This document shows, piece by piece, positions 10,286 through 28,900 of a stretch of 64,000 bases of DNA. A program made the translations under genes and the position numbers. Numbering within the stretch: the stretch's first letter is position 1; every line of letters starts with the position of its first letter. The notes beneath the pieces are model-generated. The model had not been told where the DNA came from. It did not search any database and was given only the letters and a program-made list of their open reading frames with translations. The stretch lies in the sequence record KY963424; one strand, given 5' to 3'. This DNA comes from Shigella phage SSP1.

Positions 10286-11185
10286 ATGTACTACTCTCTA
10301 ATGAGAGAGTCAAAAGTTATAGTTGAGTATGATGGTAGGGCATTTCATTTTGATGCCCTATCAAACTATGATATACAGACTTCCTACGAGGAATTCAAGA
10401 CTCTTCGTAGGACTGTTCATCGTAGAACTAACTATGCAGACTCTATTATAAATGCTCAAACTCCCTCTTCTATCTCTCTAGCAGTAAATTTCAGTAATAC
10501 TCTTACTGAGGCTAACTTCTTTGAATGGTTAGGTTTTGATAGAAAAGGTAATACTTTCTTACTCCCACTATATAGTAGTAATATTGAACCTATTATGTTC
10601 AATATCTATATAGTAAATAAAGATAATAACTGTGTATATTTTGAAAACTGTTATGTATCTACGGTAGATTTTTCTTTAGATAAGAACATACCAATTCTTA
10701 ATGTTGGTATTGAGTCTGGGAAATTCTCAGAGGTATCTACCTATAGAGAAGCAGCTTCTATTATACAGGGTGAAGTAATGTCTTACAGCCCAGTAATAGC
10801 TTCTACTAATGGCAGCATCTTACCCGGTCTTATTTCTGCCTCTTTATCTTTCCAACAGCAGTGCTCCTGGAGAGAGGATAAGAGTGTTTTTGATATAAAT
10901 AAAATTTATAATAATAAAAGAGCCTATGTAACTGAAATGAATGCTTCGGCAACCATCTCTCTATACTACTTAAAACGTTTTGCAGGAGATATGGTTTATA
11001 ATATAGAACCGGAGATAGATATACCTTTAACGATAAGAAATAATAATATTTCTATAGATTTTCCTTCAGCACGTATTACAAAACGCCTAGAGTTCTCAGA
11101 TGTGTATAGAGTTGAGTGGGATATTATACCTACTGCTTCTTCAGACCCAGTGAGAATAGATTTCTTTGGAGAAATTAAAAAATGA
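10286..11185 (+). CDS. Tail structural protein (p140-like, putative)
   Basis: 299 aa; position after tail tube gene; assignment by synteny only. Confidence 0.35.
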   Translation: MYYSLMRESKVIVEYDGRAFHFDALSNYDIQTSYEEFKTLRRTVHRRTNYADSIINAQTPSSISLAVNFSNTLTEANFFEWLGFDRKGNTFLLPLYSSNIEPIMFNIYIVNKDNNCVYFENCYVSTVDFSLDKNIPILNVGIESGKFSEVSTYREAASIIQGEVMSYSPVIASTNGSILPGLISASLSFQQQCSWREDKSVFDINKIYNNKRAYVTEMNASATISLYYLKRFAGDMVYNIEPEIDIPLTIRNNNISIDFPSARITKRLEFSDVYRVEWDIIPTASSDPVRIDFFGEIKK

Positions 11186-11586
11186 TTAATTTAAAAGATA
11201 TTACTCTTGATACTCGTACTATTACTCTTTCCTACCCAGGTATGCCGAACTTTAAACTAGAACTTAACTATATGTCTCGTGCTACCTCTAAACGTGTTAT
11301 TTCTTCTGCTAAACGCGATGAATGGGTTAACGGTACTTTGATTCAGGTGCAGGATGATGATAAGTTCATTGAAGCCTTTGTTGACGCAGCTATTAAAGGC
11401 TGGACTGGCTTAACTGTTGGTGACGTTGAAAAACTGATGCTGATTGAAACAGACGCTGATCCTACTACTGAAGTTCCTTTTAGCCGCGATAATGCTGTAA
11501 TGCTCATGCAGAACTCTGCTGCGTTTGATTCTTGGATCAACCAGACAGTGTTCCACTTAGACACTTTTCGTAGCCCAAAAGCGTAA
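11182..11586 (+). CDS. Tail assembly chaperone (G-like, putative)
   Basis: 134 aa; position between tube and tape measure genes; 3' end overlaps an ORF open in the +1 frame. Confidence 0.4.
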   Translation: MINLKDITLDTRTITLSYPGMPNFKLELNYMSRATSKRVISSAKRDEWVNGTLIQVQDDDKFIEAFVDAAIKGWTGLTVGDVEKLMLIETDADPTTEVPFSRDNAVMLMQNSAAFDSWINQTVFHLDTFRSPKA

Positions 11587-11647
11587 AGAACTCCTAGATG
11601 CTGTTGCTGATTTTGCAGATAAATGTATTAAAAGCTCAGCATCTAAA

Positions 11648-12016
11648 ATGACCAAACAACAATATTTGATACTTTGTGAGTCAATGGGTATAGAACCTGA
11701 TCCTAAGGCTATGCCCGTTGAACTCGAAGATTTTCCACCTATTGTATCTATTAGTATGAATATTTATAACAGTCTGATTGACTGTTTCATACCTGGTGAC
11801 TTTCCTATTTTTATAGGTAAGGATAAGGCTGCATTAGGTGTTTTATTTGATATTTATGGGATTACTGATCCTATAGAAAAAGAATTTGTTCTACACATTA
11901 TCAATATATTTGATGCTAAAGCTGTAGATGCTGCACGTAAGCGTGCTGAGAAGCATAAACCGCAAAACGGAAGGATTCCTAACGTTAAGCCACATGCTAG
12001 ATCTCGTGCACGGTAA
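11648..12016 (+). CDS. Tail assembly chaperone second ORF (T-like); +1 frame is open from 11561
   Basis: 122 aa from ATG 11648 with no recognisable SD; same frame is open back to 11561, overlapping the last 26 nt of the upstream ORF. Confidence 0.35.
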   Translation: MTKQQYLILCESMGIEPDPKAMPVELEDFPPIVSISMNIYNSLIDCFIPGDFPIFIGKDKAALGVLFDIYGITDPIEKEFVLHIINIFDAKAVDAARKRAEKHKPQNGRIPNVKPHARSRAR

Positions 12017-12051
12017 AAGTTTCCTCCAATGGGCGTTCCACGATGAGGCTT

Positions 12052-12082
12052 GGCTCTGGGTGATTTGCCCAGAGCCTTTTTT
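12052..12082 (+). terminator. Rho-independent terminator upstream of tape measure gene
   Basis: 9-bp stem GGCTCTGGG/CCCAGAGCC, 7-nt loop, followed by TTTTTT. Confidence 0.75.
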
Positions 12083-12099
12083 ATTGGGAAAAATAAAAC

Positions 12100-15000
12100 A
12101 TGACTGATAAGCTAATACGAGAATTACTAATAGACGTTAAACAGAAGGGGGCAACTCGTACTGCAAAGTCTATTGAAAACGTATCTGATGCGTTGGAAAA
12201 TGCTGCTGCTGCTTCCGAACTGACAAATGAGCAGTTAGGTAAAATGCCCAAAACCCTTTACTCCATTGAGAGGGCAGCAGATAGAGCAGCGAAAAGTCTT
12301 ACTAAAATGCAAGCTAGTAGGGGTATGGCTGGTATCACTAAATCTATTAATGATATTGGTGATAAACTAGACTACCTAGCTATCCAACTTATTGAAGTAA
12401 CAGATAAACTAGAAATTGGATTCGATGGAGTTTCTAGATCTGTTAAAGCAATGGGTAATGATGTTGCAGCTGCAACAGAGAAAGTTCAAGATAGATTGTA
12501 TGATACTAATAGAGCATTAGGTGGCACAGCTAGAGGTTTTAATGACACTGCTGGTGCCGCTGGTAGAGCTTCTAGAGCTATTGGTAATACTTCTGGTTCA
12601 GCGCGTGGTGCAACTCGTGATTTTGCGGCAATGGCTAAGATCGGTGGTAGTCTACCTATTATGTACGCAGCTCTTGCTTCCAACATCTTCGTTTTGCAAT
12701 CAGCATTTGAACAACTTAAACTAGGTGATCAGCTAAATCGTCTAGAAAAATTTGGTGTTATAGTAGGTACTCAGACAGGTACTCCTGTTCAGACCCTTGC
12801 TAGATCACTACAAGAAGCTGCTGGATATGCTATTTCTTTTGAGGAAGCGATGAGACAGGCGTCTTCAGCATCTGCTTATGGATTTGATGCCGAACAACTT
12901 AATAAATTTGGTTTAGTAGCTCGTCGTGCTGCTGCTGTTCTTGGCGTTGATATGACTGATGCACTTAACCGTGTAATTAAGGGTGTATCTAAACAAGAAA
13001 TCGAACTTCTGGATGAACTTGGTGTCACCATCCGTCTTAATGATGCATACGCTGATTATGTTAAACAGTTAAATGCTGCAAACACAGGTATAACATATAA
13101 TGTTAATAATCTTACCACTTTCCAGAAGCAACAAGCATACGCTAACGCGGTAATTGCTGAATCTACTAAGCGTTTTGGCTACCTAGATGAAGTACTACGT
13201 GCAACTCCGTGGGAGCAATTTGCTGCTAATGCAGATGCTGCACTAAGAAAAATACAACAAGCTGCTGCTAAGTATTTAGGGCCAGTAATTGATGCTATCA
13301 ACACAGTATTTTATACATCTCAGGCTTCTATATCTGCTGAAGCAGCTAGAGCTCAAGAAAAAACTAATAGACAGATAGACCCTACCAACGTTGGTGCTGT
13401 TGCTTTAAGTTTAGCTGCTTCTGAAGAAGGCTATAATAAAGCTCTAGATATGTATAAGGAATCTCTTGATAAGCGTAATAAGCTAAAATCTGAGTTCGAT
13501 AAACGAATGGAACAAGCAGATTTCTATACAAAACTAGCTATACGTCAGGTTGGAGAAGGTATTCCTGTTGGTATTGCAGCAGCAGGTGCCTCGGAGGCCA
13601 ATAAGCAATTTGTAGCAGAAACTGCAGCTATGGGTCTACAAGTAACTAGACTTGGTAAGGAAGTAGAGGATTCTACAGAGAATCTCAATGCTTGGAAATC
13701 AGCGTATCAAGCTGCTGGGGCTGCTGCTGCAAAAGCTAATCCAGAGTTTCAGAAGCAAATTAATCTACAGAGAGATACTACTGATCCTGATGCTGTATAC
13801 GATTTTAACTCTACTGTATTAAAAGGACTAACTGAGCAGCAGAAAGCGTACAATCAGACTAAGAAAACTGCTAGTGACTTAGCTAATGATATACAGAACG
13901 TTGCTCAGAATACAGATACTGCTGCTAAAACTAGTGCTACTTTAGCAGATGCTATAAAAAACATAGAATCTCTATCTCTAGGTACTGGTAAGAGTGCTGA
14001 TGAATATGTTAAAAATCTTAACCTAGGCTACAATACTCTGTCTGAAATGAAAACTGCGTCTCAGGCCTTATCTGAGTATGTTAAACTAACTGGTAATGAA
14101 ACTAAAAATCAGTTAGCAGTTCAACAGAAGATAGCTGATGTATATAACCAAACTAAGGATAAAGAAAAAGCACAGGAAGCTGGTAGGCGTTTAGAACTCC
14201 AACAGTTAGAAGAGCAAGAAGCTGCTTTACGCCGTGTTCTTCAAACAAACCAGGGAAATAAAGCTGTTGAGAAAGAAATTGAAAAAATTCAGCTGGAGAA
14301 ACTTAAGCTTACCAATCAGGGCATGGAAGCTCAGAAGAAAGTTAAGGATTATACAGATAAAATTCTGGGTGTAGATCGTGAGATAGCTCTTCTGAATGAC
14401 CGTACTATGACTAGCACTCAGTATAGATTAGCACAGTTAAAGTTAGAACTAACCATAGAGGAGGAAAAATACGAGTGGTATTTAAAACAAGCGGATAAAC
14501 AAAAAGAGGCAGAACAGTCTAGACGTGCTCAAGCACAGATAAGTAGAGAGTTATGGGAAGCAGAGAAACAAGCTACTGCTACTCATGTATCCGCCCTTAT
14601 GGATGCCTTAGAGGTTAGCCAAACGCAGAGAAATGTCACTGGTCAGTCCCAGATTCTCACTGAAAGGTTATCTATTCTGCAGCAGCAGCTGGAGCTGTCT
14701 AAAGGTAATACTGAAGAAGAAATTAAATATCGTAATGAGATTTATAAAACTTCAGCAGCCTTAGAACAGCTTAGGAAACAGAGGGATAGCCAGATGCAGC
14801 AACAGGTAGGGTCTTCTGTAGGTGCTGTATATACTCCTACAACTGGACTATCTGGAGAAGATAAAGATTTTGCTGATATGCAAAATAGAATGGCTTCTTA
14901 TGACCAGGCAATCTCTAAATTATCTGAGCTAAACTCTGAAGCAACCGCTGTGGCTCAAAGTATGGGTAATCTAACTAATGCCATGATCCAGTTCTCCCAG

Positions 15001-28028: not shown

Positions 28029-28900
28029 TGTTCTGCAATCTCCAAAATATCTTTTGTAAACTTATCTAATACATCTTGACCTACAGCAGCAATAGCATCT
28101 ACACAGTAGGTAGGTAAATCAACCAGAATTAAGTTTCGGTAAAGCAATTCTTCCGAAGCATTTAAATTCTGTATATATTTCTGTTTTCCAGGTAGTGGAA
28201 GCTGATCAATAATATCCAGAACGTTACCAAATTCACGAATAATATTATACCCGCGTTTTGCCCCAATACCTTCAACACCACGGATATTATCCCCTAAATC
28301 ACCCATAATTGCTTTCAGAGAGATAAACTGCTCTACATCGTCAACATTATGATGCTCATACATATCACGAAGATGGTATTCGCGACGTGTTGTAAAAGAG
28401 AAGCGAGAAACTTTATCAGTTAATAAAGTATCCCAGTCACCATCAGTAGAAATCAACCAAACGTGATCATACAGATGTCCAATGAGTTTAACGATATAAG
28501 CCGCCATATCATCTGCTTCTACACCACGAATAGTGAATGTTGGGAATGTAGTTTCACATAGTTCGAAAGCATCTTTCAAATACTCGAAGAACTGCTCATC
28601 TAACGCTTTCTCCTCTTCCGTACGCTGCGAGTATTTCTCATCTCGATTCCCTTTATACTCAGGGAGATGCTCTAAGCGGAATGCAGACTTCCCTTTATCT
28701 CCTAAAACTATTGTAGTTCTAGCGGAATAAGATTTTGCTAGAGACTGAATAGTGGAAACATAACTTGAGGCAAATGGTTTTTTACTGTTATTATGCTTGA
28801 AGCGAAAGCCTAAGTTAGTTCCATCAACAATCATTAGGTTACGACGGGAAGCCATTTCAGCTTCCTCTTCTTCAATAAATTTTCCCCAGGATTTACTCAT
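28025..28900 (-). CDS. 5'-3' exonuclease / flap endonuclease (T5 D15-like)
   Basis: 291 aa (same as T5 D15); N-terminal acidic metal-binding residues and helix-3-turn-helix region typical of FEN/5'-nuclease family. Confidence 0.85.
   Translation of the reverse strand: MSKSWGKFIEEEEAEMASRRNLMIVDGTNLGFRFKHNNSKKPFASSYVSTIQSLAKSYSARTTIVLGDKGKSAFRLEHLPEYKGNRDEKYSQRTEEEKALDEQFFEYLKDAFELCETTFPTFTIRGVEADDMAAYIVKLIGHLYDHVWLISTDGDWDTLLTDKVSRFSFTTRREYHLRDMYEHHNVDDVEQFISLKAIMGDLGDNIRGVEGIGAKRGYNIIREFGNVLDIIDQLPLPGKQKYIQNLNASEELLYRNLILVDLPTYCVDAIAAVGQDVLDKFTKDILEIAEQ

Follow-up and report, generated by a model that had tools for sequence, protein, structure and literature searches.

A predicted +1 ribosomal frameshift at UUU_CGU joining the two tail assembly chaperone reading frames of T5-like phages

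We have analysed a window of 64,000 nucleotides (nt) of DNA from Shigella phage SSP1 (sequence record KY963424), in which two tail assembly chaperone genes lie next to each other in different reading frames. The region is 100% identical to that of the Salmonella phages SPC35 and Th1 (Tequintavirus, Demerecviridae; T5-like), and at least 80% nucleotide identity to it was found in 443 phage records. Comparison of the junction between the two genes across diverged relatives leads us to propose, with good confidence, that a +1 slip of the ribosome at UUU_CGU, giving join(11182..11568,11570..12016), is the model that best describes this locus. Likewise, the first open reading frame (ORF1) and the downstream frame (ORF2) very probably constitute one recoded gene pair, the counterpart in the T5 group of lambda gpG/gpGT.

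The overlap and the conserved codon pair

ORF1 occupies positions 11182–11586 of the plus strand and, as a preliminary description of this DNA had read it, ends in ...AGC CCA AAA GCG TAA. ORF2, annotated from the ATG at 11648 to position 12016 on the same strand, lies in the +1 frame relative to ORF1 ((11648 − 11182) mod 3 = 1). This frame is open from 11561, after a TAG at 11558–11560, and hence the two frames overlap by 26 nt (11561–11586, plus strand), within which any shift must take place. The same description had suggested that +1 recoding may join the two chaperone frames, had quoted the codons CCA AAA GCG TAA from the end of ORF1, and had recommended a comparison of the overlap in related genomes. 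That comparison gives strong support to the kind of event and places its site elsewhere: the +1 offset is retained in 15 diverged lineages, and the conserved element is UUU_CGN, represented in the window by UUU_CGU at 11566–11571 (plus strand), 9 nt upstream of the codons quoted. The end of ORF1 itself is not conserved, since other genera carry wholly different tails past the Arg codon.

Among a set of 30 unique close-relative sequences (IMG/VR loci L013–L039 and L001–L003, and T5), only 2 of the 26 columns of the overlap are variable, compared to 31% of the columns in the ORF1 body, and TTTCGT at 11566–11571 is invariant in all of them. More divergent junctions were drawn from GenBank (8 genera), from IMG/VR loci and from metagenomic contigs with distant homologues of the C-terminal, T-like domain; the distant T-domain homologues came from a full HMMER scan, and the related loci from a four-sequence alignment and single queries. 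The 15 lineages with a +1 offset (the SPC35/T5 group, Shiner/L076/L077, AAS21, phi3, Cilsick/L040–L043, RP7, D51, D28, DU_PP_V, L045, L047, L049, L050, L089 and L090) share only 23–58% protein identity. In all 15, a single invariant Phe column close to the ORF1 terminus holds an in-frame TTT_CGN, with CGT, CGA or CGC as the Arg codon. The Phe codon of these lineages is never TTC and the Arg codon is never AGR, and TTT is likewise kept in the 30 close relatives, despite the fact that TTC makes up 42% of the Phe codons and AGR 33% of the Arg codons in the window phage, which indicates that the constraint acts at the nucleotide level. Beyond the Arg codon, the ORF1 tail comprises from 0 to 12 residues that are unrelated among lineages, and the overlap, 26 nt long in the window, ranges from 14 to 122 nt in the relatives. 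The smallest overlaps, those of Vibrio phage D28 (14 nt, A ACA ACT TTC GTT AA) and of locus L043 (17 nt), hold little besides AAC_TTT_CGN, and therefore the shift must fall within this element.

In the mechanism that we propose, most ribosomes would read ORF1 up to its TAA and yield the chaperone of 134 residues. In a small fraction of them the tRNA-Phe (anticodon GAA), placed on UUU 11566–11568 in the P site with CGU in the A site, would slip by one nucleotide and re-pair on UUC 11567–11569, the wobble G:U pair becoming G:C. Decoding would then go on at GUA 11570–11572 in the +1 frame up to 12016. The predicted product, a conceptual translation of join(11182..11568,11570..12016) on the plus strand, is a fusion of 277 residues (...HLDTF-VAQKRKELL...) with an N-terminal G-like domain and a C-terminal T-like domain, the latter encoded by the +1-frame segment 11570–12016 (plus strand; 148 residues plus stop). 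A shift at UUU_C would yield the junction peptide DTFVAQKRKELL after digestion with Asp-N and DNAVMLMQNSAAFDSWINQTVFHLDTFVAQK after digestion with trypsin. Slippage of the P-site tRNA-Phe from UUU to UUC, followed by a GNN codon for Val, Glu or Ala, is the sole re-pairing that would fit all the lineages.

The same protein family also includes members in which ORF2 lies in the −1 frame. Seven loci, which represent about four deep lineages, show this arrangement, and each of them carries a canonical X_XXY_YYZ heptamer at the column homologous to the +1 site: G_GGA_AAC in L078–L086, L087, L088 and L092, A_AAU_UUU in L044 and L091, and A_AAU_UUC in L046. In this −1 class, the 0-frame codon after Phe is never Arg. 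Frame offset and type of signal match in 22 out of 22 cases, an association with a naive probability of 1/3876 when four −1 lineages are counted and phylogeny is left uncorrected. The occurrence of canonical −1 heptamers in metagenomic relatives at homologous Phe/Asn codons indicates that a single protein family has changed its direction of recoding.

Two further features of codon context were observed. A purine follows CGN in 16 of 18 +1-class sequences (the window, at position 11572, and L004–L011, L043, L045, L047, L049, L050, L076, L077, L089 and L090), the first +1-frame codon being GUR, GAR or GCG. These codons are read in enterobacteria by abundant U34-modified tRNAs, and the purine may be part of the shift signal. 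In all long ORFs of the window (55 ORFs, 57 kb), TTT was depleted before pyrimidine-initial codons (TTT-CNN, 46 observed vs 72 expected; TTT-TNN, 38 vs 72), while TTC showed the opposite pattern, a bias consistent with genome-wide avoidance of +1-prone UUU_Y sites.

Protein homology and the coding stretch ahead of ATG 11648

Profile comparisons place both frames in a single protein family. ORF1 matches PHROG 313, 'tail assembly chaperone', over profile positions 12–139 of 258 (E = 8.9e-34), the upstream-extended ORF2 matches positions 170–258, and the conceptual fusion aligns in one stretch, with residues 1–262 on positions 12–258 of 258 (E = 1.5e-53). The matches to PHROG 313 and to PHROG 3914, also a 'tail assembly chaperone' family, are strong. 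Conceptual fusions from 20 lineages align colinearly, and between the +1 and −1 classes the alignment runs through the junction uninterrupted by gaps. From the PHROG 313 match and the position of the gene, the 134-residue product of standard decoding of 11182–11586 is predicted to be a gpG-like tail assembly chaperone. No natural in-frame fusion appeared among 147 cluster representatives of the T domain; two long T-domain matches, P0006 and P0147, were considered as natural fusions and rejected as low-complexity artefacts. Pfam contained no family above threshold for ORF1, ORF2 or the fusion of SPC35, and gave only weak matches to Phage_TAC_5 or Phage_YdaY in relatives. Neither a sequence search of the PDB nor a homologous-protein search with the fusion as query (at E ≤ 1e-3) returned a match, and the AlphaFold single-sequence model of ORF1, with a predicted local distance difference test (pLDDT) score of 34, was unusable for judging the spiral fold of tail assembly chaperones (TAC).

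The 61 nt between the two annotated genes (11587–11647, plus strand), which public records annotate as intergenic, are coding and evolve under purifying selection in the +1 frame only. Variable columns in this stretch among the 30 close relatives are distributed over the first, second and third positions of the +1 codons as 5/1/15 (chi-square p = 0.001), in comparison to 26/4/87 in the ORF1 body and 18/12/74 in ORF2. Read in the +1 frame, the 24 variants of the stretch comprise 17 synonymous and 7 non-synonymous changes and no stop, and two of these 7 correspond to a paired AGC to TCC switch between serine codons. The same variants would amount to 1 synonymous, 21 non-synonymous and 2 stop changes in the 0 frame, and to 3, 21 and 0, respectively, in the −1 frame. 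Moreover, the peptide encoded upstream of 11648 (...LLxxVxxFAxxxxxxxxSK.T...), of which the stretch would supply about residues 136–155 of the fusion, is conserved across genera.

These results bear directly on the simplest competing view, namely that the locus contains two independent genes, with ORF2 starting at ATG 11648 or at a non-canonical codon upstream of it, and with no fusion made. Current annotation agrees with it. Every annotated record inspected from close relatives lets the second chaperone gene begin at the ATG at 11648–11650 (plus strand), and the two ORFs appear as separate, unjoined coding sequences (CDSs) in all 12 records whose annotation was inspected. This ATG is also kept in 30/30 close relatives, and the single published statement encountered on the matter, that of the Sugarland genome announcement (PMC6256483, which cites Zivanovic 2014), is that the T5 chaperone genes lack any predicted signal for frameshifting. 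Nevertheless, ATG 11648 is the first ATG, GTG or TTG of the +1 frame and, in accordance with what had been noted before, its −18 to −4 region (aaaagctcagcatct) contains no element similar to a Shine-Dalgarno (SD) sequence. The preliminary description had regarded an independent start at this codon as the outcome that would speak against recoding, and the data contradict such a start: Klebsiella phage Shiner has ATT at this codon and Pantoea phage AAS21 has GTT, the ATG is lost in others too, and in all of them the upstream peptide is kept, AAS21 having no ATG, GTG or TTG over the 48 codons past the shift site. The first start codons of ORF2 in other lineages occur at varied places, within conserved sequence. 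Two independent genes would neither explain why the 61 nt ahead of the ATG evolve as +1-frame coding sequence nor keep the offset constant at +1, together with an overlap and a UUU_CGN pair, across such divergent proteins, and relatives of the family carry canonical −1 heptamers at the same column. We consequently regard this view as improbable, although it is the best placed of the alternatives, and ATG 11648 as most probably internal, encoding Met156 of the fusion.

A hairpin is located in this same stretch, at 11595–11645, with an outer stem of 9 bp (11595–11603 with 11637–11645) that is kept in 30/30 close relatives, where one double compensatory change (TA to CG at 11602/11638) and one G-U pair occur; the z-score of its minimum free energy is −3.5 in SPC35. 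It ends 3 nt ahead of ATG 11648, a location from which it could affect initiation as expected of two independent genes, and it is absent from DU_PP_V and from other genera. As a stimulator of the shift this hairpin was rejected, given that its start lies 26 nt past the P-site codon, too distant for a classical stimulator, and that its conservation does not extend beyond the genus group.

Other recoding events and the weight of the evidence

The overlap could in principle be crossed by recoding other than the slip at UUU_CGU. The tRNA-Lys can re-pair from AAA to AAG, and a +1 slip at AAA_G (11578–11581) would lie inside the 26-nt overlap, while −2 slippage has been documented for gpGT of phage Mu (PMC3498833). 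However, AAA_G is missing in most lineages (AAS21, Cilsick, RP7, D51, D28, L047 and L043), a −2 re-pairing of tRNA-Phe or tRNA-Arg finds no complementary codon in most of them, and the overlaps of D28 and L043 exclude everything but AAC_UUU_CGN. Such events seem to us to have only a slender chance of being the correct explanation; the AAA_G slip would give the Asp-N junction peptide DTFRSPKRKELL in place of DTFVAQKRKELL.

Less probable still is a −1 slip at C_CCA_AAA (11574–11580, plus strand) which would merely provide ORF1 with a short alternative C terminus (...SPKSVKNS), leaving the downstream ORF unrelated. This heptamer lies in the −1 register and fits X_XXY_YYZ, and reading on from it gives, as had been anticipated, ...SVKNS and then a stop after a few codons. 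It is not a conserved signal, though, since position 11575 is C in 17 of the 30 close relatives (CCCAAAA) and T in the remaining 13 (CTCAAAA), and the heptamer is absent from other genera. Its product would be altered by few residues, and the coding status of 11587–11647 would be left unexplained.

Transcriptional slippage, in which RNA polymerase would skip a U along the T run at 11565–11568 and generate a minority of in-frame mRNA, appears the least probable of all, for although SPC35 has four consecutive T (ACTTTTC), many lineages have only three (ACC TTT C, AAC TTT C, TCC TTT C, GGG TTT C), known cases of such slippage need runs of about 6–9, and the conserved CGN would have no explanation.

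Several observations weigh against a +1 slip at UUU_CGU or limit its strength. First, no conserved stimulatory RNA was found in folds of 60–90 nt downstream plus 60 nt upstream from nine lineages, which mostly gave z-scores near 0, and Rfam had no match at the locus; nor is there a conserved upstream SD-like element, phi3 being the only lineage with an upstream GGTGGG. With no stimulatory element found, the efficiency of the shift could be very low. Second, the A-site codon CGU is the commonest Arg codon in the phage (412 of 844), so that neither a slow A-site codon nor tRNA scarcity can explain the shift. Third, TTT_CGN occurs in frame seven more times in other ORFs of the window (at 1492, 19291, 24438 and 26920 on the plus strand, and at 28807, 43587 and 44327 on the minus strand), and as the hexamer is not unique, the argument rests on its conserved position. 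Fourth, the counts of 15/15 and 7/7 are not independent trials, because the lineages are related by descent. Fifth, additional independent initiation at ATG 11648 may take place in SPC35, beside the fusion. Finally, the support for the fusion in T5-like phages is comparative sequence evidence. As regards efficiency, the lack of a conserved stimulatory structure or SD-like element suggests that the shift is probably inefficient, in the range of one to a few per cent by analogy with the PA-X site of influenza A virus. In lambda the G:GT ratio is about 30:1 (PMC5009743), and a low-efficiency site would suit a ratio of this kind.

Gene context and comparison with known recoding systems

Locally, the genes run from the major tail protein through the p140 baseplate-tube protein, ORF1 and ORF2 to the tape measure protein, and in SPC35, in T5 and in 8 other genera ORF1/ORF2 are flanked by the tail tube gene(s) on one side and the tape measure gene on the other. 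The ATG of ORF1 and the TGA stop of p140 share the tetranucleotide ATGA (11182–11185), an overlap that suggests translational coupling of the chaperone to p140. In T5 the counterparts are T5.143 and T5.142, annotated as separate genes and each as 'tail assembly chaperone', and in all 60 matches listed, out of 908 records returned by tblastn, the two halves occur in two pieces on the same strand. This, together with the +1 offset retained in the 15 lineages, shows that the arrangement did not arise by chance. A strong hairpin resembling an intrinsic terminator (12052–12085; 11 pairs, 7 of them G-C, followed by a T run) separates the chaperone genes from the tape measure gene, and a terminator is annotated in T5 at the homologous place. 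T5 has in addition an HNH endonuclease gene (T5.141) inserted ahead of pb2, which is absent from the window. Some irregularities were found in individual database records. Locus L002 (PP892525.1, Escherichia phage vB_EcoS_I14) is classified in GenBank as Ounavirinae/Felixounavirus, yet its region is 98% identical to T5-like phages, and this record annotates a 'hypothetical protein' of 33 residues over the terminator region. In Salmonella phage SP3 (MG387042.1 / NC_048001.1), the match to window positions 11000–12200 extends over 1436 nt in two pieces and the record carries two 'tape measure' CDSs, which together suggest that the tape measure protein gene of this phage is split, or carries an insertion, close to where it begins.

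A frameshift in the tail assembly chaperone genes is conserved in long-tailed phages according to Levin (1993) and Xu, Hendrix and Duda (2004), as these works are cited in PMC5009743. The locus described here resembles lambda gpG/gpGT in that two overlapping ORFs, the second of them devoid of a start of its own, separate the tail tube gene(s) from the tape measure gene, and in that a short product of standard decoding would be accompanied by a minor fusion made by recoding, which here is predicted. Relatives within the T5-type chaperone family even use G_GGA_AAC, as lambda does, at the homologous codon. It differs in its direction, +1 instead of −1, and in its signal, a P-site tetranucleotide plus an A-site CGN in place of a tandem-slippage heptamer. 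For the SPC35 proteins, no match to a Pfam TAC family attains the threshold, and the fusion is predicted here from sequence. That a gpGT fusion need not arise from a −1 shift is illustrated by phage Mu, where the shift is −2.

Regarding +1 recoding in bacteria, UUU_Ynn has been described as especially prone to +1 shifting (PMC5009743). Bacterial cases include E. coli prfB (CUU_UGA) and the +1 sites in tail and capsid genes of Listeria phage PSA and SPP1, and recoding at UUU has been reported for FseA of ICEMlSym and for YopN-TyeA of Yersinia, although mutagenesis gave no confirmation of the YopN UUU_UGG site (PMC5009743, PMC3498833, PMC3789692). The predicted fusion shares with these cases the synthesis of a +1-frame product in bacteria. 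Unlike in prfB, the A-site codon is the sense codon CGN, the stop lies 0–12 codons further on and there is no conserved upstream SD-like stimulator; unlike in the T5-like phages, the shifts of PSA and SPP1 occur on a proline codon beside a stop codon or a pseudoknot and yield structural proteins.

The closest likeness in the signal itself is found in viruses of eukaryotes. At the influenza A PA-X site, UCC_UUU_CGU, the junction peptide has been sequenced and the efficiency is about 1%, and the change of UUU_CGU to UUC_AGA abolished the shift (PMC3498833). UUU_CGN is the consensus +1 motif of amalgaviruses, UCC lying outside that consensus (PMC5052127), and the motif is also present in fijiviruses and in chronic bee paralysis virus as well as the Lake Sinai viruses (PMC3498833, PMC5052127). 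The preference for CGN in the A site was noted and left unexplained by Firth et al. (2012) and Nibert et al. (2016) (PMC3498833, PMC5052127). As in PA-X and the amalgaviruses, the T5-like junctions have an identical UUU_CGN in the 0 frame, a downstream ORF in the +1 frame, no obvious stimulatory structure and an A-site CGN preference without explanation by tRNA scarcity; the full influenza UCC_UUU_CGU occurs in Pectobacterium phage DU_PP_V and in the metagenomic locus L090. Outside these two the E-site codon is not UCC, an enhancer specific to influenza; unlike in PA-X, it is not conserved, being ACU in the window. The setting is also different, with bacterial hosts, 70S ribosomes, a DNA genome and a function in tail assembly, and CGU, which is rare in birds and mammals (PMC3498833), is common here.

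Among the papers searched in full text, none describes +1 frameshifting for the chaperones of T5-like phages, though an earlier description elsewhere is possible. We lean, by a modest degree, towards the broader proposal that UUU_CGN is a +1 signal intrinsic to the ribosome, acting on both bacterial and eukaryotic ribosomes, that the whole T5 family (here Demerecviridae plus metagenomic relatives) has been using unrecognised for a gpGT-type chaperone, and that sister lineages have gone over from one type of signal to the other, −1 heptamers or this +1 site, at a single homologous Phe codon. Were this so, it would represent a natural and deeply conserved bacterial use of the PA-X/amalgavirus UUU_CGN and would argue that the signal acts on the ribosome itself. 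The conservation of CGN in hosts with plentiful CGU would mean that a scarce tRNA is not the source of the A-site preference, and E. coli, in which CGU is common, would offer an easy system for asking why CGN is preferred. A junction for which a single protein family employs either −1 heptamers or a +1 site constitutes a natural experiment on the evolution of recoding direction with the product kept fixed. Programs that predict frameshifts from rare A-site codons or heptamers will overlook the UUU_CGN class. If the fusion exists, the second gene is mis-annotated with a wrong start, lacking the 27 +1-frame codons of 11570–11650 and the whole G domain, and the error would extend to the matching GenBank genomes (the 908 tblastn records). 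Phage T5 is a classical model, and a correct gene model is needed by those who modify the tails of T5-like phages. Overall, the sequence comparisons describe the locus as a chaperone pair of the gpG/gpGT type in its predicted function and as a putative +1 site of the PA-X kind in its mechanism.

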